A DNA stretch of 32,000 nucleotides from Candidatus Nitrosotalea bavarica (GTDB lineage Archaea > Thermoproteota > Nitrososphaeria > Nitrososphaerales > Nitrosopumilaceae), in the NCBI RefSeq assembly GCF_900167955.1, contig NZ_FUYK01000001.1:98782-130781 (forward strand), read 5' to 3'. Shown here piece after piece: positions 4,890 through 17,679 of this stretch; position 1 is the stretch's first letter; every line of letters begins with the position of its first letter. The position numbers were made by a program, and so were the translations under genes. The notes below the pieces were generated by a model. The model was not told the DNA's origin and did no database searches. It worked only from the letters and a program-made list of their open reading frames with translations.

Positions 4890-5482
4890 ATTCCAAGATA
4901 CCCTAAACAAACATAGTATAATTCACTACTAGATTTTCTGCTTGCTGAAGGTTTTCTTAGCTGAACTTTGGCAAACTTTTTTCGTATATAGTCTCTGAAT
5001 TCAATCGAATATTGACCATCAAATACTTTGAAGAGTGCGTTACCCTTTCGTGCCAAAACTTGGTCCATGATTTTACTTGCTGCATAGTTAAGAGAGATTT
5101 GTCTTCCATGGTCCACATCCCATTGTCCAGTAACTGTTGGTGATAGATCACAAATAACGGCATTAATTTTACCTCCAAAATACTCGAAAATTTGTTCTAC
5201 AACAGATTCGTCCTCAATGTCTCCCCTGATGATATGAACATCTTGAATTTCTTCTACAAATGCTTTGTCAATGCCCATAACTTGTCCTTTGTTTCCTGCA
5301 AGTTCTTTTGCAACTTGAGTCCATCCACCAGGGGAGCATCCCAAATCCAAAACAAAAAACCCAGGACCAATTATTCGATAAGAAGTGTTTAGTTCTTTTA
5401 GTTTGTATGCAGCTCTACTTCGATATCCTTCTTTGTGAGCTAGTCTTCTATACAAGTCACGCCTTGCATCAATTAACTTCAT
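4886..5482 (-). CDS. rlmE: 23S rRNA 2'-O-ribose methyltransferase RlmE/FtsJ
   Basis: Motifs: YRSRAAYKLKELN, VLDLGCSPGGWTQV, VICDLSP, FKVFDG. The ORF track starts at ATG 5521. I prefer ATG 5482, which forms an ATGA overlap with the stop of the upstream gene and gives MKLIDARRDLYRR. Confidence 0.85.
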   Translation of the reverse strand: MKLIDARRDLYRRLAHKEGYRSRAAYKLKELNTSYRIIGPGFFVLDLGCSPGGWTQVAKELAGNKGQVMGIDKAFVEEIQDVHIIRGDIEDESVVEQIFEYFGGKINAVICDLSPTVTGQWDVDHGRQISLNYAASKIMDQVLARKGNALFKVFDGQYSIEFRDYIRKKFAKVQLRKPSASRKSSSELYYVCLGYLGI

Positions 5483-6060
5483 TTCTTTACCTTCTTTGTA
5501 GAAATTTCGGTTAAAACCCATTGTTCAATCAAGGGACAAGTTCGTGGACTAATTTCTCCTTCAAGAGTACATTTTGATTCAACAGGACAAATTAGACATG
5601 GTGCTGATTCTATTGATTGTGTGGTTACTGGTACATGTGCAATCTTTAGTTTGTAAGTCCAACGACCGTTTTCAAGAATTTTTTCCCTTTTTACAAGATG
5701 TTGTCTCTCAAGCTTTAGTGCAAGCCTAGAACCATCTCTACTTGATAGTTTGAGTTTCTTCCAAAGTTCACTTTGGAACATGCCATTGTCTCCGCGTTTT
5801 GCAACCAAGCCTAAAACAGTTGTTTTTAATTTTTCCATATCCAGACCTTCTATCTGGAAGTTTTCTATCTCCTTTTCATCAATCTCTTCTTCTTCCTCTA
5901 AAAGTTCAGCCTCCTTTTTCAATTCAGCCTTGGTCTTTTTCTTTTCTGGTTTAGTAATTTCCTTTTTCTTTTCAGTCTTGACTACTTTCTTCTTTTCAGT
6001 CTTGGTTACTTCCTTCTTTTCTTCCATTTTTTTGATTGATTTTTTTTCTTTTTTAGCCAT
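5479..6060 (-). CDS. Winged-helix + Cys4 (Fe-S-type) protein, TFEbeta / RNAP III RPC34-like, with a Lys/Glu-rich N-terminal extension
   Basis: 193 aa. The N-terminal ~60 aa are KKE-type low complexity (KTEKKKVVKTEKKKEITKPEKKK). The central part looks like a wHTH (FQSELWKKLKLSSRDGSRLALKLERQHLVKRE). The C-terminus PCLICPVESKCTLEGEISPRTCPLIEQW matches the C-x2-C-x5-C-x11-C ... W pattern I recall for the RPC34/TFEbeta cluster domain. Confidence 0.55.
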   Translation of the reverse strand: MAKKEKKSIKKMEEKKEVTKTEKKKVVKTEKKKEITKPEKKKTKAELKKEAELLEEEEEIDEKEIENFQIEGLDMEKLKTTVLGLVAKRGDNGMFQSELWKKLKLSSRDGSRLALKLERQHLVKREKILENGRWTYKLKIAHVPVTTQSIESAPCLICPVESKCTLEGEISPRTCPLIEQWVLTEISTKKVKK

Positions 6061-6135: not shown

Positions 6136-6666
6136 TTATTGTACGTTAAAGTTAGCCTTAACACTAGTACTATTTTGATTGGTCTTGTCCTTCATTTCTA
6201 CCACAATCTGATAAGGACCTGTTTTATCAATAACAGGTGTAAAAGTATCTTGAATTGGCATAGTAGAATTATTCTGTCCAAAACATTGTGAAAAGTAGGC
6301 ATGTTGGACTATAATTTGCATTGGAGACGTACTTGGATCATATATTGTCATATACAGATCTCCACAATCAAATGCGGTATTGTTTACCATAACTCTAAAG
6401 TTAAGCGGTGTAGATATAGGATAAGAACTGTTCAGATTCAACAATCGTATGTCCTTGTCTCCTTGTTGTCCAGTTTGTGTTTCAAATTTAAATTGCCACA
6501 TGTTTAATTTTCTATCAGGTTGTCCTAAAACATCAGCTAGTACAAATCCTCCAAAAATCAATGAAACTATAACAGGAAAGACGAAAACAAGATAAGCAAT
6601 TTTTTTTACTGCCAATTTGTAGTATAACCGCTCTAGTTCCCATATATCTATTTGGTCGAAAAACAT
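6136..6666 (-). CDS. Hypothetical membrane-anchored protein (single N-terminal TM, extracytoplasmic beta-rich domain)
   Basis: 176 aa with an ATG start. Hydrophobic segment IAYLVFVFPVIVSLIFGGFVLADVL, followed by a Thr/Asn/Gln-rich region with several N-x-S/T sequons. No recognisable family. Confidence 0.5.
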   Translation of the reverse strand: MFFDQIDIWELERLYYKLAVKKIAYLVFVFPVIVSLIFGGFVLADVLGQPDRKLNMWQFKFETQTGQQGDKDIRLLNLNSSYPISTPLNFRVMVNNTAFDCGDLYMTIYDPSTSPMQIIVQHAYFSQCFGQNNSTMPIQDTFTPVIDKTGPYQIVVEMKDKTNQNSTSVKANFNVQ

Positions 6667-6721
6667 CTAATTGATAAATTTGACGAATAAGTTAAATCAC
6701 AGCCAAGCCAATAGCCGCTAG

Positions 6722-8803
6722 ATGCGGCTTAGAAAATTTAGAGTGCAAGGTTATCGTTGCATTCATGATTCCGGCGAAATTAAAGTAGGAGATCTTGCGG
6801 CATTTGTAGGAAGAAATGAAAGTGGCAAAACTACGATTTTAGAAGCTCTTACATTGCTCAACAAGGACACAAAGGTTTCGGATTTAGATTTATGCGATGA
6901 AATGACTGAAGTTCTCAAGTCAGAAATAAAATTAGCTGAAGGAGAATTTGTACTAAATGAAAAGGAGACTTCATTAATTCGAGAAAAATTTCCAAATCTC
7001 CAAGACATAAAAAATATGAAGATTTACAGGACTAACAAAAATCCCAGAATACAATATGATTTTGGCGAAGTAAAAATCAGTGGCGAGGCAAGCAAGAGAC
7101 TCAACTCGTGGGAAAACTTTGTAGATAGAATCAAGTCATTTGTATTAGCTATGCCAAATCCTATACGAATTAGAGTAGACACCAAATTTCTAGATGCGCC
7201 TGCGCCACGAACACGTGAAGTCTTTATGGACATGATGGCTGAATTCAATAACAACATCTACCTGATTGCATCACAAGATCAACAAGTAATATCAGAGTGG
7301 AAGAACATCTACCAAGACCTAGAGAGCATATTTGATAATATGCTAATAGGAACAAACGAACGTTCAGCATTAGACAATTTCATTGAGGATAAACTACATC
7401 CTCGATTTGTTTACTTTTCAGACTACAAGAAGATACTTGGAAATATAGACTTGGAGGAATTTGTGAGAGAATCAAAGGGAATTAGAGCAAAAGGATTAGA
7501 ATATGTTGAAGAGTTTGACAAAGCAGAAACAGTCAACAATTTATTTTATTTGGCAGAGCTTGATGCCCAGAAGCTTGAAGAGGCGAAGAACAGTCCATCA
7601 AGACTTATAAAATTATTAAATATTTCAAGTAGAAGACTTAGTGAGAGACTCAATCCAGCATGGAAAGGAGATCCAATTCATGTCGAATTGAGATGGAATC
7701 CAGGAAATGTTTTGAGTGTAGTCATATCAGATGTTCACAAAGATGGTACCGTTACAAATACAGGACTGCTTAACAGAAGAGCTGAAGGATTCAAGTGGAC
7801 TTTTTCATTCATAGTAAATTTTGCTGCAGAAACACAAAAGGCAGAATTGAAAGAAGCAATATTATTACTTGATGAACCTGCCAGAAACTTACATCCTGCT
7901 CAACAGAGAGGAATTTCAGATCTGCTAAAGGGTCTAGCCGGTTCAAATCAAATATTGTATGCGACTCACTCACCTTTTATGATATTTGATTATACTCAAG
8001 GTAATCTGCTTGTAGTAGAGCTTGACAAGAGAAAACATCTAAGTAAGATCTATTATGACTACTGGAATGCCGACGATCAAACCCTCATTCCAATTTTATA
8101 CGGCCTTTCAAGAGGTCTTGTTGAATCCATAGTAGACAAGCAAATTGGTTTCAATTCAAGACCTGTGATAATAGTTGAGACCATGTCTGATTGTATGTAT
8201 CTAAATGCATTTGATAGATTCCTTAAGGATCCTAATCTATCCATGAATCCGCTCAACATAGTTCCAGCTTACAACAAGAACTCAGTTATGTCGCTTGCAA
8301 TATTTTATAAAAATCATGGATATGATACTTTCATTTTATTAGATAATACAGAAGAATCAAGAAAAATTTCTACAGAGCTTCAGTCAAATGAATTCAAGTC
8401 AGTCCAGATGATTTTCTTTGAACTTGCCGGACAACCAAGGCTATTCATAGAAGACCTTTTAGTAGATGAAGATTATCTTTATGCTGTAAACCAAACTTAT
8501 GAAGTAAAACTAAGAAAAGAAGGATATGTTACATTGACTAAAGATCAAGTATTAAGCAAAGGTAAGAAAAGCATACTGGATAACCTAAATGAGATTTGGA
8601 AAGAAAATCAACACCTAGGCTGGGAAAAGTTTGACAGAGAAGAAATTTGCAGATATATTTGTGAAAAAATGGTATTAGGTGAAACTGACTTTTTATCAGA
8701 TAAAACAAAGGACCAATTCAGGTCATTATATAGATTGATTGCTGAGAGAATAAGACAGAATCAAAACCTAGTATCCCAGACATCTACAACTTTTAGCAGA
8801 TAG
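6722..8803 (+). CDS. OLD-family-like ABC ATPase fused to a Toprim-like nuclease domain (stand-alone candidate defence protein)
   Basis: 693 aa. Walker A GRNESGKTT (res 30-38). About 310 aa of helical insertion. ABC-signature-like RRAEGFKWTFSF (res ~351-363). Walker B ILLLDEP (res 380-386). H-loop ATHSP (res 414-418). Then a Toprim-like region: VIIVETMSD (Glu486), FILLDNTEE (Asp541) and LFIEDLL (res 574-580). Confidence 0.65.
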   Translation: MRLRKFRVQGYRCIHDSGEIKVGDLAAFVGRNESGKTTILEALTLLNKDTKVSDLDLCDEMTEVLKSEIKLAEGEFVLNEKETSLIREKFPNLQDIKNMKIYRTNKNPRIQYDFGEVKISGEASKRLNSWENFVDRIKSFVLAMPNPIRIRVDTKFLDAPAPRTREVFMDMMAEFNNNIYLIASQDQQVISEWKNIYQDLESIFDNMLIGTNERSALDNFIEDKLHPRFVYFSDYKKILGNIDLEEFVRESKGIRAKGLEYVEEFDKAETVNNLFYLAELDAQKLEEAKNSPSRLIKLLNISSRRLSERLNPAWKGDPIHVELRWNPGNVLSVVISDVHKDGTVTNTGLLNRRAEGFKWTFSFIVNFAAETQKAELKEAILLLDEPARNLHPAQQRGISDLLKGLAGSNQILYATHSPFMIFDYTQGNLLVVELDKRKHLSKIYYDYWNADDQTLIPILYGLSRGLVESIVDKQIGFNSRPVIIVETMSDCMYLNAFDRFLKDPNLSMNPLNIVPAYNKNSVMSLAIFYKNHGYDTFILLDNTEESRKISTELQSNEFKSVQMIFFELAGQPRLFIEDLLVDEDYLYAVNQTYEVKLRKEGYVTLTKDQVLSKGKKSILDNLNEIWKENQHLGWEKFDREEICRYICEKMVLGETDFLSDKTKDQFRSLYRLIAERIRQNQNLVSQTSTTFSR

Positions 8804-8912: not shown

Positions 8913-11138
8913 ATGAGTAAAGTGTTATTAAAATCAGTTATTCTTCTTGCCCTACTTCTCAGTAGTATCTTTACAACATATACAGTACAGCAAGTTAATG
9001 CATCTCCTACGTTTGTAACTGTAACTACTACAAACACTGGGGGAATGACCGTACTTTCTGTCAACAATAATGCAAACAGTACGTTAGATGTAGCTTCATT
9101 CATTTTGCAAATAAATGGTGGATCTTTCAAATCATTCAAGCTTGACAATGGTTGGGCAGGTATGAAAACTTCGTCAACCACCATTGCATTTAGTGCAATA
9201 GATCCACTAAAGCCTGGTAAATCAGCATCTTTCCAAATCAAAACAGACCAGCAGATACCCAGTATGACATGGAGTGCATCAGATACAAACAACATAGAAA
9301 TTGGTTCTGGCAATATAGGTACTCAAACACCTGGTAATACTCAAACACCTGGTAATACTCAAACACCTGGTAATACTCAAACACCTGGTAATACTCAAAC
9401 ACCTGGTAATACTCAAACACCTGGTAATACTCAAACACCTGGTAATACTCAGGTACAACAAACAGTACGAGGAATATTAGATACGTCAACATTTAGAATA
9501 ATTCCCTCAACTCCTGCAATAGGTGGCCATGTACGTGTAGTCGGTATTAGTTTTTCTTCATCAACTAACCTTGATTTGTACATAGGCAATGACAAGATAG
9601 GTTCATTTTCATCTAACGGTGATGGAAATTTTGTTACAACTCTCGTTATACCAAATTCTGAACAAGCAGGAAGTGTTGAATTTATTCTAAAGGATCAACA
9701 GGGTAATCAAAAATCATTTTCTACAAATCTCAAAGTATCACAACAACATGGCGGCAGTGTGATTCAAAACATTCCTTTAACAGTAAATTTTGATCCAATA
9801 TTTCACAGAGGAGAAACAAAAATAGTTTCAGGGACAGCAACTCCGGAATCCACTATAACTTTTACCATATCAGACTCTAATGGAAATTCAGTAACGACAT
9901 TGACTGCGCAGGCGGATAAAAATGGAAATTACGTATTAACCAGAAGCATACCTGTAGATGCAGCATTTGGAAAATACACTGTAACTATCTCAGACGGAAA
10001 AGATCAAGTCTCCAAAGGATTCAGCATTGTAACTACCCATCAGGTTTCAGTCTCAACGTCGTCACAAAAATATGACTCAGGGCAAACGGTTGTCATAAAC
10101 GGCACTTCAATTTCAAATCAGGTGGTAAGTTTCATTATTGCAGATCCTACAGGTATTCCAATTTATTCAAAAAGTGCAAATGTAACATCTGCCGGTACTG
10201 TCTCAGCATCATATCAATTACAAAACACTGCTATTGAAGGAACATATTCAATAACTGTAATTCAAGGTAATGATCAATCAGTACTTTACTTTGGAGTAGG
10301 AGTAGATCCATCCCCTCCCATAACAATGAATTTGGATAAACTCAGCTATTCAGATACTGATAAACCCCTCATTAGTGTAACAGGTCCTCCATCATCAACC
10401 CTTAATCTTATCATAATAGATCCATCAGACAAACAAAAGTTTTCGGATATTATTTCCTTAGGGGAACAGGGAGAGGCAACATATTCTTTTAATTTAACCT
10501 CATACACATCAGGCATTTATACAGCAGTAGTTACTCATGCAGATGAAAAAATCCAAAAAGACTTTGCAGTAGGTCTAGAGGTAGGTTCTGGAACGATTGT
10601 GCTCAATACAGTAAAGGACACATATCTACCAAGTGATGAAATTATAATTATTGGAACAACCAATTCAAATACTCTGCTCCAACTTTCTTTGACTGATCCT
10701 AATGGCATACTAGTAAAATCAATACAAACATTTGCAGATAAATCCGGTCACTTTTCTTCATTTGCTTTCAGTATACCATCTATTGCAACACCGGGAACAT
10801 GGAAACTTGATGCTACAAGTGGAATAAACCACGTATCCAAAAACATAATTGTAAAATCATCTACACAGGCAATCACTATTAAAGTAGACAGAGCCTCTGG
10901 CCTCTACACAAGAGGAGATATCATTGCAATCTCAGGAACTGATGCTGGTACTGACAATAACCTTAGTATCTCGATTGGAAACAGTGCTGGATCTATTGAC
11001 ACTTTAGAAACATCATCAACAAACAGAGGCGACTACACTACAGATTGGGTAGTTCCAAATGATATCAAGCCTGGAACATATACAATTGCGATATCGTCCC
11101 CCAATGGCAAATCCACTCTCAGCATAACGATTCAATAA
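8913..11138 (+). CDS. Secreted/surface protein with a signal peptide, a TQTPGN x7 linker and about six Ig-like (MG/CARDB-like) repeats
   Basis: 741 aa. N-terminus MSKVLLKSVILLALLLSSIFTTYTVQQVNA|SP. Recurrent ~90-aa modules follow the pattern [IV]xGT...xxxxI.D..G......A....G.....F.IP....G.Y.I..., for example ISGTATPESTITFTISDSNGNSV...GKYTVTISDG and IIGTTNSNTLLQLSLTDPNGILV...GTWKLDATSG. No C-terminal TM or sorting signal is visible. Confidence 0.7.
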   Translation: MSKVLLKSVILLALLLSSIFTTYTVQQVNASPTFVTVTTTNTGGMTVLSVNNNANSTLDVASFILQINGGSFKSFKLDNGWAGMKTSSTTIAFSAIDPLKPGKSASFQIKTDQQIPSMTWSASDTNNIEIGSGNIGTQTPGNTQTPGNTQTPGNTQTPGNTQTPGNTQTPGNTQTPGNTQVQQTVRGILDTSTFRIIPSTPAIGGHVRVVGISFSSSTNLDLYIGNDKIGSFSSNGDGNFVTTLVIPNSEQAGSVEFILKDQQGNQKSFSTNLKVSQQHGGSVIQNIPLTVNFDPIFHRGETKIVSGTATPESTITFTISDSNGNSVTTLTAQADKNGNYVLTRSIPVDAAFGKYTVTISDGKDQVSKGFSIVTTHQVSVSTSSQKYDSGQTVVINGTSISNQVVSFIIADPTGIPIYSKSANVTSAGTVSASYQLQNTAIEGTYSITVIQGNDQSVLYFGVGVDPSPPITMNLDKLSYSDTDKPLISVTGPPSSTLNLIIIDPSDKQKFSDIISLGEQGEATYSFNLTSYTSGIYTAVVTHADEKIQKDFAVGLEVGSGTIVLNTVKDTYLPSDEIIIIGTTNSNTLLQLSLTDPNGILVKSIQTFADKSGHFSSFAFSIPSIATPGTWKLDATSGINHVSKNIIVKSSTQAITIKVDRASGLYTRGDIIAISGTDAGTDNNLSISIGNSAGSIDTLETSSTNRGDYTTDWVVPNDIKPGTYTIAISSPNGKSTLSITIQ
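9321..9451. repeat. Perfect 18-bp tandem repeat, 7 full copies plus 5 nt (actcaaacacctggtaat), encoding (TQTPGN)7
   Basis: Unit starts counted at 9321, 9339, 9357, 9375, 9393, 9411 and 9429, with a partial unit at 9447. No mismatches. In frame with the 8913 ORF from residue 137. Confidence 0.95.
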
Positions 11139-11186: not shown

Positions 11187-11699
11187 ATGAATCTGAGAGA
11201 CAAGATTGCAGAAATACCGGATTTCCCAAAAAAAGGAATTTTGTTCAGAGATATCAGTCCCCTTCTAAGAGATCCTGCTGCGTTATCACTATTAATAGAA
11301 GAATTTACAAAAATAATTCATCCAAATGATGTCGATATTTTTGCAGGCATAGAGTCGAGAGGTTTTCCATTAGCTTGCGCATTAGCTCTCAAATATAACA
11401 AGGGCATGATTATGATTAGAAAACAAGGAAAATTGCCAGGTGCCACTCATAAGGTATCATACAATATCGAATATGGAAGTGCCACGATGGAGATCCAAGT
11501 TGGCGCATTAAAGAAAGGGCAAAAAGTGTACATTTGTGATGATTTGCTTGCAACTGGTGGAACAGCAAAAGCTGCTGCAAAATTAGTTGAGAAGATAGGC
11601 GGCAAGGTATCTGGTTTTGCGTTTATCATAGAATTAACAGATTTGAAAGGATCAAAAATTATCAAAGATTACAAACATAATGCGCTGGTGAAATATTGA
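11187..11699 (+). CDS. apt: Adenine phosphoribosyltransferase
   Basis: 170 aa. Motifs: [45 protein letters not shown] (PRPP loop). Confidence 0.9.
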
Positions 11700-14309: not shown

Positions 14310-14780
14310 TTGGCAAGCTACAAGAGCAGATACTCTAATGACAAGTCATTTGATTTTATAATTCCCCTAATGGTTTTACTATTTTTGGGTGTGGTATACA
14401 TGCTCTCAATAAGATCTTCGGAAGGATATGTCAGTTTCATATTAATTGGAATAGCGGCTGCAATTATGATTTATTGGGTAAGAGTATTAAAGAAGATGAC
14501 AACTGAGAACGTTCCACAATATACACCAAAAGAAGCAGATACGAAAAATTGGGTATATGATCTAATAAAAGGTGAAAAAGAAATAATATTTGTAGCAGAG
14601 GTACCAGGTCCAGAGGATCAGGTAACTGTCAGACTAATTGATGGAATTTTATACGTACGCGGATCTGGACACTTTTCAAAAGAGGTCCCAATTGAAACAA
14701 CACCAGACATGGGAATTCATGACTTCAAATACAGAAACGGTGTTCTTACTTTAAAAATTAGAAAATTAGAAACTCTTTGA
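14310..14780 (+). CDS. Small heat-shock protein (Hsp20/alpha-crystallin domain) with two predicted N-terminal TM helices
   Basis: 156 aa from a TTG start. Hydrophobic segments: FDFIIPLMVLLFLGVVYMLSI and YVSFILIGIAAAIMIYWV. The C-terminal part looks like an ACD: EIIFVAEVPGPEDQVTVRLIDGILYVRG ... FKYRNGVLTLKIRK. The start codon is uncertain. Confidence 0.65.
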   Translation: MASYKSRYSNDKSFDFIIPLMVLLFLGVVYMLSIRSSEGYVSFILIGIAAAIMIYWVRVLKKMTTENVPQYTPKEADTKNWVYDLIKGEKEIIFVAEVPGPEDQVTVRLIDGILYVRGSGHFSKEVPIETTPDMGIHDFKYRNGVLTLKIRKLETL

Positions 14781-15869
14781 TTCTTCTAGTTTTGCTGGCA
14801 GATACTTGTCTGTAATATTAGTAAGACCGTACTTTGAGAATGCTTCAAGTTCTGCCTTTCTTTTTATCTTGAGAAATACCTCTAGTTGTGTTTTCCAATT
14901 TCCTTCTTGATATCTAGGATCTTTTTGAAGATCATAAATTCTCTTTATGTCAGATTCTGTCATAGGGATTGTTGGTAGCTTGTATTTTTCAATATCAGTT
15001 GCCCAAACACCTAACCATTTTGCGTCTGGTACGGTCAATTCTCTTAAATGAGCTGCATTTGCAGAGCCAGATTTTATCACCATTGCAATATGTTCTCCAT
15101 ACACATCACCGTCTGCTAGAATAACTACAGGTAATCCCATTTCTGTGTTTAATCGTCTCAAGAGATTTCTTGTTGACCTAGGAGCTTGGCCTGCTGTATC
15201 AACAATTATAGCTTTAAATTTTTTATGAACTTTTTCTTCAACAAATCTTGTGAAAAGACCACCCTTTTCTATGGCAATAACAAGTTCTGCACTAGTATCA
15301 ACAAGTTCTGCACTGCTCAAACTTGGACCTATCAAATATCCGTCAGGATGATCCGAGAGATTCATTCTTTTCCCTTCGTAGCCTGGAACAGTATATTCAA
15401 TTGTCAAGTCTCCAAAGACACTACTTCTTTCTTCAGGAAATATGTGAAATTCTTCACGAGGGCTTGTGAGAACTGCTTCCAAGTCTACTATGATATTATC
15501 AGATTCTGGCTGATCCTCAAAATCAATACTAAACGCCTGTGAAGAATAATAAATGTCTCTTAATGTAGATGATTTTCCTTCTCGAACTAATCTATTGACA
15601 AAGAAAGCAAGCCAAGCAAGCTGTGTATAGGAACGTAACTGTGACATGTTTCTAGAACTACGTACAGCACTTGCACTACCCAAAATGTATTGTCTTATTT
15701 TTTTGTCATAAACAATATTGCTTACTGATCTACTAGGAATTACAAATTGTGGAAATCTTCCTTTGTCAAGATTATCATATATGCTAATACCTTGTTGCTC
15801 CAATAAAGATAGTAATCTTTTCTTCCTTTCTTCAGCTGTCTTTGCACTAGACTTGTTCTTCAATCTCAC
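14766..15869 (-). CDS. top6A: DNA topoisomerase VI subunit A (Spo11-like)
   Basis: 367 aa with a GTG start. Toprim motifs VIAIEKGGLF and ILADGDVYGEHIA. N-terminal winged-helix/5Y-CAP region. Overlaps the top6B stop. Confidence 0.92.
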   Translation of the reverse strand: MRLKNKSSAKTAEERKKRLLSLLEQQGISIYDNLDKGRFPQFVIPSRSVSNIVYDKKIRQYILGSASAVRSSRNMSQLRSYTQLAWLAFFVNRLVREGKSSTLRDIYYSSQAFSIDFEDQPESDNIIVDLEAVLTSPREEFHIFPEERSSVFGDLTIEYTVPGYEGKRMNLSDHPDGYLIGPSLSSAELVDTSAELVIAIEKGGLFTRFVEEKVHKKFKAIIVDTAGQAPRSTRNLLRRLNTEMGLPVVILADGDVYGEHIAMVIKSGSANAAHLRELTVPDAKWLGVWATDIEKYKLPTIPMTESDIKRIYDLQKDPRYQEGNWKTQLEVFLKIKRKAELEAFSKYGLTNITDKYLPAKLEESKSF

Positions 15870-17679
15870 TTCCCATCCTTATCAGTTGATTATAATTTGG
15901 TTCTTTTTTCTTACCAGCAAGTTCAGTTGCAAATTGTGCAATTAGTGGTACATATTTTGAGTAAAGATTCGCCCTCTTTTTTGCCATATCATCTGCTCCT
16001 TTTCTAGACATATGAACAGCCAATTTTCTTGCAAGATATTGTAACGCATTTTTTAATTCCCTTTCAAGCTCAGGTCTATCTGCCACATTTTCTTTTCCTA
16101 CTGTCTTGTACGGAATTCTTGTAGAGCAAATATGAGATACAATCACAAGAGGAGGATCTCCTTTTATTTTGTATCTACTCCACTCAGTCTCATTTACTAT
16201 TTTGAGGACTACATCACTTCCTTCATCATATAGAAGCGGTATACGATTAGCAAAACGATAAACTTTGAGACCAGATGGTGGAATATCACCTCCATAGGCA
16301 ATGCCCATTTCTACAACAAATGGAAATCCAGAATATGCTGATGCGTTACGTTGCCAGACAGCTGCAAACTCGGGATTGAAAAACTTCATTATTCCTTTAG
16401 AAAGAGGTTCCTCCCCTAAAGGGGCCAAGCAACTGGGATCTGGAGCAAGGAATTCTTCAAATTTTTGGAGTGCGTCAGCTAGTTTTACCAACTCCTCATT
16501 TGTCATACTGCCTATTCTTTTATCTGGCTTGAATTTGGCAAAATCACAGAACTTTTCTGCGGTAGTGGGTCCAACCCTTTGGAATCGCTTGGTCAAAAAG
16601 GTGAGGAGTGTATCACCCTGAACGGTACTTGCAAGTTGTTTGTAATATGGACTCTCTGGGTCCAATTCTATTGCATGTGTTTGAGACTCGCCAAAGTCCC
16701 AGTATGTTATAGTCTTATTAGCAATATCAATATCATCGATTCTGATTTTTTTCAATCCTTCAAAATCAATATTTAGAAAAGACATGACCGAAATCACAGT
16801 TCTTACAGGTTTTGAGATATCAGACCAACGCTTTTGTGCTTTTTCTAAAATCTCTTTGTGAGAGAGGTTTTTCTTTAGACCTAATTCTTTTTTGACTTTA
16901 TCAATCATCTTGTTGTCAATGGTTGGAATCTGATAATGCGTATCTGTGATCATTCTTCTTATAGTCTCAACATCAATACCGTGCGGATGAGGTTTGATGA
17001 CTGTCGGTGGATGAGGCATATCTTTTACAATTCTTGGATAATGGAATTTTTCACCACTTGGATCTTCAAATGTTATTGATGCGTAGGGGGTAATCAGCGA
17101 AGTCTGATATACATAATCGCGTACTTTGGATCCTGCTTTTGAATAATCTCCTTCAAGAACAATACTCACTGCAAGACCTGTCTTTGAACCTTCTTTTGTT
17201 GTATGTTTTAGAATTACAGGTTTGTTTTTCTGAATGTCAAGTAACATTACAAACTCGTCAAGTGTTTTACCATCTGAGCAGCTCTTCACAGTAACTGGTT
17301 TGTTTGTAGTAATCTGACCATAAAGAATAGCCATTGTAGCACCAAGACCAAACATACCTCTAGCTTGCTTGAGACCAAATTTAGAACCATAAAGAACAGT
17401 ACCAAAAGCAAGAGGAATGTGTTCAGGATCAATACCTGGCCCGTTATCTTTTACAGTCAAGACATAATGTTTTGGATCTGGTTTTTCTGCATCTACTGCT
17501 TTTATTGAAAGATGAATGTCTGGAAGGATCTTCTTTTGATCACATGCATCAAGTGCATTTTCTACAAATTCTCTAACAGATGTGTAAAGTGATCTAGTTG
17601 GATTACTAAATCCCGCAAGATCTCTATTTCTATAAAAGAATTCACTTGGAGATATTTGGCTGAAGACTTCTTTACTCAA
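15847..17679 (-). CDS. top6B: DNA topoisomerase VI subunit B (GHKL ATPase)
   Basis: 610 aa with a TTG start. Bergerat-fold motifs: REFVENALDA, KDNGPGI, GMFGLGATMA. Confidence 0.92.
   Translation of the reverse strand: MSKEVFSQISPSEFFYRNRDLAGFSNPTRSLYTSVREFVENALDACDQKKILPDIHLSIKAVDAEKPDPKHYVLTVKDNGPGIDPEHIPLAFGTVLYGSKFGLKQARGMFGLGATMAILYGQITTNKPVTVKSCSDGKTLDEFVMLLDIQKNKPVILKHTTKEGSKTGLAVSIVLEGDYSKAGSKVRDYVYQTSLITPYASITFEDPSGEKFHYPRIVKDMPHPPTVIKPHPHGIDVETIRRMITDTHYQIPTIDNKMIDKVKKELGLKKNLSHKEILEKAQKRWSDISKPVRTVISVMSFLNIDFEGLKKIRIDDIDIANKTITYWDFGESQTHAIELDPESPYYKQLASTVQGDTLLTFLTKRFQRVGPTTAEKFCDFAKFKPDKRIGSMTNEELVKLADALQKFEEFLAPDPSCLAPLGEEPLSKGIMKFFNPEFAAVWQRNASAYSGFPFVVEMGIAYGGDIPPSGLKVYRFANRIPLLYDEGSDVVLKIVNETEWSRYKIKGDPPLVIVSHICSTRIPYKTVGKENVADRPELERELKNALQYLARKLAVHMSRKGADDMAKKRANLYSKYVPLIAQFATELAGKKKEPNYNQLIRMGSEIEEQV

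Follow-up and report, generated by a model that had tools for sequence, protein, structure and literature searches.

We describe here a gene of the OLD family that lies within a 32-kb stretch of DNA from Candidatus Nitrosotalea bavarica (hereafter the window; 32,000 nucleotides, linked to its source by a 100% identical protein). The open reading frame (ORF) at 6722-8803 encodes a genuine OLD-family protein, in which an ABC-type ATPase is joined to a Toprim domain. Public annotation of this protein already reads “predicted ATP-dependent endonuclease of OLD family” or “GajA/Old/RecF-like”, and the family assignment is therefore not new; what is new is that it is a core gene of the Nitrosopumilaceae and that its Toprim active site is a variant one. 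An earlier note on the same DNA had proposed a candidate single-gene antiviral system, so far undescribed. Since the gene is fixed and slowly evolving, we consider that a nuclease of defence type was probably recruited to serve the cell itself, and we see roughly balanced chances that it is an exapted OLD ATPase-nickase or nuclease, which descends from a defence-type ancestor and has a housekeeping role on cellular nucleic acid.

The retention of the gene was assessed by scanning one genome per GTDB species, which returned 147 relatives, of which the best 80 (69-98% identity) were kept; these span Nitrosotalea, Nitrosotenuis, Nitrosarchaeum, Nitrosopumilus and other Nitrosopumilaceae. Synteny was scored in loci with enough flanking sequence, using tblastn of the proteins that neighbour the gene in the window. 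Gene order around the OLD gene was identical in 80/80 species-level loci, and follows the arrangement DHODH-Nop5-fibrillarin-RNaseHII-Trm1-FtsJ-wH193-unk176-OLD-MG2-PRTase-...-TopoVI. Because these loci had been chosen for containing the OLD gene, we controlled for ascertainment with 80 metagenome loci anchored on the neighbouring wH193 gene, of which 43 extend far enough to inform. The OLD gene was present at the expected distance and on the expected strand in 43/43 of them (58-93% identity). Orthologues were found in the cultured N. maritimus SCM1 (ABX13294.1), N. koreensis (NKOR_07715), N. zosterae and N. oxyclinae, as well as in four Nitrosotalea (N. devaniterrae, N. okcheonensis, N. sinensis and N. 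bavarica).

Selective constraint was quantified as the ratio of non-synonymous to synonymous substitution rates (dN/dS), calculated by the Nei-Gojobori method against three Nitrosotalea genomes, for the OLD gene, its parts and several genes of the window:

OLD, whole gene: dN/dS 0.031-0.036
OLD, ATPase core (residues 1-60 and 351-440): dN/dS 0.00-0.02
OLD, Toprim domain: dN/dS 0.02-0.03
OLD, residues 61-350 (inserts): dN/dS 0.03-0.04
OLD, C-terminal tail: dN/dS 0.05-0.06
Top6A: dN/dS 0.018-0.023
Top6B: dN/dS 0.025-0.037
DHODH: dN/dS 0.036-0.044
Fibrillarin: dN/dS about 0.07
Trm1: dN/dS 0.08-0.13
unk176 (flanking): dN/dS 0.12-0.17
MG2 protein (flanking): dN/dS 0.24-0.26

The OLD gene is thus about as constrained as topoisomerase VI and lies below fibrillarin and Nop5, and its dN/dS by domain gave no fast-evolving segment suggestive of an arms-race sensor. 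At the protein level, its identity between genera (69-73%) equals or exceeds that of Nop5 (63-67%), fibrillarin (64-68%), RNase HII (60-65%), Trm1 (51-56%) and FtsJ (65-71%). With identical synteny in 80/80 loci, presence in 43/43, a dN/dS near 0.03 and no defence genes in the window, the proposal of a new antiviral system is not upheld.

The protein and its main sequence features, all encoded on the forward strand, are located as follows:

6722-8803 (+): OLD-family ATPase-Toprim gene, with an ATG start, encoding 693 amino acids plus stop
6722-8041 (+): ABC-type ATPase region, residues 1-440, supported by AAA_15, the AlphaFold2 (AF2) model and Foldseek
6809-6835 (+): Walker A, G30-RNESGKTT-38 (K36); G30, N32, G35 and K36 invariant among 36 family representatives
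7775-7810 (+): signature-like motif, R352-RAEGFKWTFSF-363; G356 and F363 invariant across the wider family
7859-7879 (+): Walker B, I380-LLLDEP-386; L382, D384, P386 and H391 invariant among the 36 family representatives
7961-7975 (+): H-loop, A414-THSP-418 (H416); H416 invariant, aligning to the “STHSP” segment of TsOLD
8147-8476 (+): Toprim domain, residues 476-585, called from PADLOC Old, PDB profile alignment, the domain model and Foldseek
8342-8356 (+): variant DxD segment, D541-N-T-E-E545, from conservation over 77 orthologue rows
8477-8800 (+): C-terminal helical domain, residues 586-693, modelled both times with confidence and as helices throughout

Profile searches matched Pfam AAA_15 over residues 1-421 (E=7e-25) together with AAA_21, and the PADLOC “Old” model (E=1e-21) in an alignment that extends through residues 370-576, while the PADLOC GajA, PtuA and AriA models match mainly in the ATPase. 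A family profile compared with the PDB identified the Thermus scotoductus class 1 OLD (TsOLD, 6p74) as the best solved relative (E=1e-23), with an alignment running through the Toprim core. The Pfam OLD-like_TOPRIM match falls short of its threshold (E=0.0099, 16.8 bits vs a cut-off of 23.2), and the Toprim call was therefore based on the PADLOC and PDB profile alignments plus structure prediction. No DUF4435 was among the Pfam matches at E<=1, and the Pfam scan detected no RNA-binding domain in the protein. Together with the models described below, the AAA_15, PADLOC Old and 6p74 matches confirm the OLD-type ATPase plus Toprim identity that the earlier note had read from the letters, and all of its motifs lie at the residues it gave, including VIIVE486TMSD490, FILLD541NTEE545 and LFIE577D578LL. 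The key ATPase residues (K36, D384-E385 and H416) are present and invariant, and residues 352-371 show no variation at all within Nitrosopumilaceae. D384-E385 is the acidic pair of a canonical Walker B, with E385 as the presumptive catalytic glutamate, and with this pair and H416 the ABC head is probably competent for hydrolysis.

The fold was predicted with a full-length AlphaFold2 model built from 36 diverse family members (mean predicted local distance difference test score, pLDDT, 87), and with a separate model of the C-terminal half (residues 440-693, pLDDT 88). When compared with the PDB using Foldseek, the full-length model retrieved TsOLD first and over its full length, followed by retron/Septu PtuA, Rad50/SMC heads and GajA, with an identity to TsOLD in the structural alignment of only about 14%. 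The helical insertion of ~310 amino acids that had been noticed in the ATPase is only partly supported: helical inserts are modelled at residues ~121-225 and ~244-313, but they do not form a single helical block, and within residues 60-350 they interrupt the beta-strands of the ABC core (70-77, 98-104, 229-232 and 319-349). By analogy to TsOLD, these inserts probably mediate dimerisation. Long coiled coils such as those of Rad50/SbcC are absent from the model. In the C-terminal half, the prediction is of a Toprim fold followed by a helical tail, as the earlier note had expected; a C-terminal half that fails to adopt a Toprim fold, which the note had named as one outcome against its proposal, was thus not seen. 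The Toprim topology is b-a-b-a-b-a-b, with b1 (482-485) leading to E486, b2 at 512-515, b3 (536-540) leading to D541 and b4 at 563-565, helices a1, a2 and a3 between the strands, and the E577-D578 segment after b4. Foldseek aligned the C-terminal model to the C-terminal region of a Xanthomonas class 2 OLD (6njw, made up of a Toprim and a helical domain; prob 0.99 over 228 columns) and to a small stand-alone Toprim protein (2fcj/2i5r; prob 0.98-0.99, root-mean-square deviation 3.3-3.5 A), all with modest E-values (3.8e-3 to 0.1).

The metal-binding site of TsOLD provides a reference for the Toprim domain: metal A is bound there by E377, D431 and D433, and metal B by D381, S478 and E480 (PMC7049728). 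Profile alignment to 6p74 equates E486 with TsOLD E377, D490 with D381, D541 with D431 and T543 with D433, while E577 is probably the equivalent of E480, judging from the S/x-I-E pattern. The equivalent of S478, provisionally position 575, is variable in orthologues. The atypical metal-binding motif reported from the sequence is hence real, in that D541-N-T543 aligns to D431-E-D433 of TsOLD with the second Asp replaced, and with this Asp one metal-A ligand is missing. We measured conservation across 77 orthologue rows, 76 of which cover the DxD segment. E486, D490, K519, N520, N542, S546, E567, E577 and D578 are invariant in all covering rows. Position 541 is D in 70, E in 6 and G in 1 (i.e., acidic in 76/77), and position 543 is T in 62, S in 14 and G in 1. 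Every orthologue sequence carries an acidic residue at 544 or 545, which may replace the lost Asp. The drift of the motif has been stepwise, from a wider family at 24-30% identity with mostly DxD, through a group at 34-41% identity with D-x-E-P, to the D-N-T/S of Nitrosopumilaceae. A degenerate DxD does not preclude nicking, since the OLD protein Cran1 is an active nickase despite having L391-x-D393 (PMC12796447).

To place the gene within its wider family, 1.84 billion cluster representatives were searched, which returned 1,636 with E<=1e-10. A single cluster stands at 72% identity (the Nitrosopumilaceae clade); below it a gap extends down to homologues of full length at 34-41%, and a large family follows at 24-32%. 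A neighbour-joining tree of 644 columns (100 bootstraps) recovers the Nitrosopumilaceae sequences as one monophyletic clade (100/100), whose internal branches are very short and match the genus taxonomy, and places this clade (100/100) inside the long-branched group at 34-41% identity. Contexts were examined for seven members of this group, six of which are in defence, plasmid or integrated-element settings:

P0125, locus L081: DISARM-like helicase/MZB/PLD set, methylase, Vsr, M78+DUF4411
P0122, locus L083: MJECL plasmid-type genes, on an archaeal contig
P0124, locus L084: type IIG restriction-modification, HicB, PemK
P0131, locus L086: PIN/HicB
P0126, locus L087: ArdC, RadC, DNA ligase
P0133, loci L089/L090: phage-type integrase
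P0130, locus L088: contig end, uninformative

Those contigs of the group that were measured have a GC content of 49-61%, vs about 36% in the window. Viral or proviral contigs of IMG/VR also carry members of the wider family, which match along their full length with 24-28% identity. Defence or mobile neighbourhoods occur in the more distant group at 34-41%, not among the orthologues, which occupy the core block only; the outcome that the earlier note had named as fatal to its proposal, namely homologues that are uniformly syntenic housekeeping genes, was found for the orthologues and not for the homologues at 34-41% identity. The contexts of these distant homologues point to a defence-type ancestry, which need not entail a present defence function. 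The simplest history would be a single acquisition of a mobile OLD of defence type by the ancestor of Nitrosopumilaceae, followed by fixation, with the direction and the source of the transfer being equally presumptive.

Two observations on these relatives stand apart. The L081 contig (1-22196, JGI Ga0669126_0000084) is a dense defence island around P0125 that includes a DUF87 ATPase, and Vsr is found in a related contig (L082). Among the IMG/VR contigs, L171-L173, L181, L190 and L208 carry full-length members at 24-26% identity over residues 1-677.

Five classes of OLD proteins, defined by genomic context, serve for comparison: stand-alone genes in variable neighbourhoods (class 1), GajA with the GajB helicase (class 2), retron-associated proteins (class 3), the split AriA/AriB of PARIS (class 4) and Cran1 of Sulfolobales (class 5) (PMC10568477, PMC12796447). 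In sequence and structure, the Nitrosopumilaceae protein is closest to class 1, and like class 1 it stands alone, its conserved neighbours being merely a core synteny block. It shares with TsOLD (6p74) and P2 Old the arrangement of ABC ATPase, inserted helical domain and C-terminal Toprim in a single polypeptide, and keeps the equivalents of TsOLD E377, D381 and D431 (by profile alignment) and provisionally of E480 (by sequence pattern). In contrast, it has 693 amino acids vs 525 in TsOLD, a C-terminal helical domain of ~110 amino acids that TsOLD lacks, and Thr or Ser in place of D433; class 1 proteins have no C-terminal helical domain and conserve all six metal ligands (Schiltz 2020, PMC7049728). 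Its invariant core-genome setting (80/80, 43/43) also differs from the variable neighbourhoods of class 1. The order of ATPase and Toprim followed by a helical region is that of class 2 GajA, in agreement with the best C-terminal match to 6njw; however, the window contains no GajB UvrD-like helicase, the downstream gene encodes a secreted MG2/Ig-like protein, and the family profile matches GajA less well than TsOLD (E=2e-7 vs 1e-23).

For class 3, no reverse transcriptase domain was found in the neighbouring ORFs, and no search for a non-coding RNA was made. The likeness to PARIS, which the earlier note had raised, does not hold: the AriA model matches the AAA_15-type ATPase region over its full length (E=4e-26), but this match covers the generic AAA_15 ATPase (1-421/373), and the fused AriAB model covers ~50 residues (372-421). 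Class 4 was rejected, as there is no separate AriB gene and DUF4435 is missing from the Pfam matches at E<=1.

Cran1 (SiRe_0086) is vertically inherited, essential, has a cell-cycle role and is apparently not antiviral, although its authors did not fully exclude a role in defence; essentiality, cell-cycle-dependent expression and chromatin association are the traits of class 5 (PMC12796447). The Nitrosopumilaceae protein resembles Cran1 as an archaeal OLD of one lineage with vertical inheritance, conserved synteny and an adjoining gene for a predicted membrane protein (SiRe_0087 there, unk176 or MG2_741 here). Both have a degenerate DxD, although the degenerate position differs (L-x-D in Cran1, D-x-T/S here). 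Orthology to Cran1 was nevertheless rejected, as hhalign (with the first 399 Cran1 residues) matched 73 columns only, around the Walker B and the H-loop; further, Cran1 is about 57 kDa and reported to be monomeric (PMC12796447), vs 693 amino acids here. Placement among the clades U1-U11 of PMC12796447 (Cran1 = U11) was attempted as a motif-string search of dataset text, and neither the Walker A string of the Nitrosopumilaceae clade (NESGKT) nor the related family strings NESGK, NEAGK and LLLDEPG were found in the portion of the Dataset EV1 text that was searched. The protein is thus not of class 2, 3 or 4, and although its behaviour is that of class 5, Cran1 is not its orthologue. Function has been experimentally tested for Cran1 alone of the two, the Nitrosopumilaceae OLD being known here from sequence and models.

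How the protein might work can be outlined by combining these features. The ABC head, in which both Walker motifs (B with D384-E385) are canonical and an H-loop is present, and whose helical inserts probably dimerise, would control access to the nuclease or nickase site of the C-terminal Toprim, in analogy to TsOLD. The Toprim, which carries a class 2-like helical tail, would act through a site of five invariant residues (E486, D490, E577, D578 and N542) plus the near-invariant D541, in which the second Asp of the DxD is gone and the acid at 544/545 may stand in. In evolutionary terms, the ancestor of Nitrosopumilaceae would have taken the gene from a mobile defence-type pool, and strong purifying selection has since retained it among the core genes. 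Its most likely activity would be to nick or process chromosomal DNA under ATP control, in the service of replication, the chromosome or the cell cycle, a role that would be analogous to that of Cran1 in Sulfolobales but independently arisen. The enzymatic activity, the substrate and the cellular role are in this sense all predictions. In its most specific form, which we advance tentatively and hold slightly less probable than its opposite, the proposal is that the protein is a second, independently exapted OLD ATPase-nickase that stems from a mobile antiviral nuclease and is essential or near-essential in a chromosome, cell-cycle or other core nucleic-acid process, that the modified metal-A site (D-N-T/S-acid) is part of this adaptation, and that recruitment of OLD defence nucleases to core cell biology is recurrent in TACK archaea.

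Three other explanations compete with an exapted housekeeping role. The strongest, which we regard as a real but distinctly less probable option, is a constitutive single-gene antiviral OLD of class 1 type that has become fixed in Nitrosopumilaceae, in which infection, or a viral factor, would be sensed by the ATPase and free the Toprim to nick or degrade viral or host nucleic acid (abortive infection or interference). The family assignment falls nearest to class 1 and the gene is a stand-alone one, sister homologues are found in defence or mobile settings (DISARM-like in L081, type IIG restriction-modification plus toxin-antitoxin in L084, as well as L086, L087 and L089), and the wider family occurs on viral contigs. 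Furthermore, class 1 OLDs are reported to defend in P2 and Vibrio cholerae (PMC12392090, PMC12445682), and the caution of the Cran1 authors regarding defence (PMC12796447) points the same way. Against this, we found no presence/absence polymorphism (43/43, 80/80), no locus variability, no adjoining defence genes, a dN/dS of 0.03 that is uniform over the domains without a fast-evolving sensor region, and a clade phylogeny that tracks taxonomy with no sign of transfer. Defence genes are typically patchy and horizontally spread (PMC12796447), and the pattern of this OLD gene is the opposite.

An RNA- or tRNA-directed Toprim nuclease, serving housekeeping or stress control of translation instead of DNA nicking, is in our judgement improbable. 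P2 Old and PARIS AriB do cleave tRNAs (PMC12445682, PMC12409363), a different substrate could account for the altered metal-A site, and the neighbours Nop5, fibrillarin, Trm1, FtsJ, the KH protein and the RIO kinase belong to RNA modification and ribosome biogenesis. However, the whole region is syntenic, so that the neighbourhood carries no functional signal, the OLD gene has its own conserved promoter, the Pfam scan gave no RNA-binding domain, and both TsOLD (PMC7049728) and Cran1 (PMC12796447) act on DNA. We give just as little credence to a repair ATPase of the Rad50/SbcC/RecF type, whose Toprim would be catalytically dead and kept as a structural or DNA-binding module. Rad50 and SMC heads are among the structural neighbours of the ATPase head and one metal-A ligand is lost; in addition, it is the ATPase, not the nuclease/Toprim, that is critical for the in vivo phenotype both in Cran1 (PMC12796447) and in E. 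coli YbjD (PMC13261556). A dead Toprim fits poorly with the invariance of E486, D490, E577 and D578, with D/E at 541 in 76/77 and an acid always at 544/545, with a Toprim dN/dS of 0.02-0.03, with the nickase activity that Cran1 retains with LxD for DxD (PMC12796447), and with a model that has no long coiled coil of the Rad50/SbcC type.

Several points weigh against an exapted housekeeping role itself. The synonymous rate (dS) is near saturation for the more distant pairs (0.8-1.2), so that only the closest pair (L003, OLD dS 0.47) is fully reliable; this pair gives the same dN/dS ranking of genes. Nitrosopumilaceae genomes are highly syntenic in general, which makes positional conservation the weaker evidence, and the argument therefore leans on universal retention and low dN/dS. 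Universality across Nitrosopumilaceae genomes in turn rests on sampling. The lost metal-A ligand could mean an altered or absent nuclease chemistry. With the exception of Cran1, the characterised OLD proteins in the literature reviewed are phage defence or exclusion factors, and our literature searches on orthologue identifiers returned no published mention. Lastly, the closest homologues beyond the clade sit in defence or mobile settings, so that a fixed antiviral role is plausible.

The remaining content of the window is all housekeeping, and includes DHODH, Nop5, fibrillarin, RNase HII, Trm1, FtsJ, PRTase and PNP, as well as topoisomerase VI A and B, a KH protein, a RIO kinase, eIF1A, eIF2-beta, UPP synthase, OMP decarboxylase and AdSS. 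The 32 kb contain no tRNAs and no defence genes, and no neighbour has a PADLOC match except for a generic PRTase/ShosT one. The absence of a partner gene, to which the earlier note had drawn attention, was borne out within the window, where there is no UvrD-like helicase, reverse transcriptase or DUF4435 protein. A hidden partner was also considered among the neighbours and rejected: wH193, unk176, MG2_741, o94, o147 and o156 have no PADLOC matches, unk176 and MG2_741 evolve 4-8x faster than OLD, and OLD has its own promoter. The PRTase (11187-11699, +) was discarded as a ShosT candidate; its PADLOC match is weak and partial (E=1e-5, generic PRTase domain), and was judged generic because every genome keeps the gene in place, with 66-98% identity. 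The OLD nucleases so far reported from Thaumarchaeota ride on casposons, e.g., N. devanaterra NitDev-C1 (PMC6563490). A casposon or other mobile element as the carrier was rejected here, with no Cas1, pPolB, integrase or tRNA in the window, and the N. devanaterra orthologue (L007) lies within the same core block.

The promoter of the OLD gene was located by aligning 20 upstream regions across genera, in which one block is near-invariant while its flanks diverge:

6680-6698 (+): promoter block TTGACGAAT-AAGTTAAATC, 24-42 nucleotides upstream of the OLD ATG

We take this block to be BRE/TATA-like, from general knowledge of archaeal promoters, and its spacing to the ATG implies a leaderless mRNA or one with a very short leader.

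Further observations concern the neighbouring genes. At 6600-6666 (-), in the 5' end of the ORF at 6136-6666, the block TTATATCTATTT is invariant in DNA across genera, although it lies inside the annotated N-terminus of a fast-evolving ORF of 176 amino acids (37-44% protein identity between genera). It is probably the TATA box of that gene, in which case the true start is likely the downstream in-frame TTG, giving (M)AVKKIAYLVFVF..., a reading that yields an N-terminal membrane anchor and then a beta-sandwich-like ectodomain. Directly 3' of OLD, the ORF at 8913-11138 (+) encodes a secreted MG2/Ig-like protein of 741 amino acids, with a perfect 18-nucleotide tandem repeat at 9320-9451 (7.3 copies) that encodes (TQTPGN)n. 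The position of this gene is constant in all genomes and its evolution is fast (dN/dS 0.24-0.26, 32-35% identity between genera). The wH193 gene (5479-6060, -) encodes a conserved protein of 193 amino acids with a Lys/Glu-rich N-terminus and a winged-helix domain, which is weakly similar to the TFIIIC B-block, MarR and RNA polymerase Rpc34 families and may be transcription-factor-like. In its longest form, which opens with the TTG at 2297, the fibrillarin ORF shares 140 nucleotides (2297-2436) with the 3' end of Nop5 (1114-2436); since the Pfam fibrillarin domain begins at residue 44, translation probably starts further downstream. Topoisomerase VI A and B (14766-17679, -), another Toprim enzyme, lies ~6 kb downstream of OLD in all genomes, a proximity that is probably coincidental within a fully syntenic region.

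As ammonia oxidisers, the Nitrosopumilaceae rank with the most abundant archaea of the planet; they have small, streamlined genomes, and to our knowledge few of their DNA-transaction or defence factors have been characterised. A 2.1-kb OLD gene that is retained in every genome examined, at a constraint typical of housekeeping genes, is unlikely to be an ordinary, dispensable defence gene. This also matters for annotation, as the PADLOC Old, AriA and GajA models all match the protein and family-based defence annotation could mislabel a core OLD gene as antiviral. Were it a fixed immune gene, it would represent a rare case of an anciently fixed and slowly evolving single-gene defence. If exaptation is true, it would be the second, independent case, after Cran1 in Sulfolobales, of a defence-type ATPase-nuclease in core cell biology, and would offer an entry point to thaumarchaeal chromosome and cell-cycle mechanisms. 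The precedent of Cran1 lessens the surprise, but an independent case in an abundant lineage, with no presence/absence variation in the loci examined, would still be notable.

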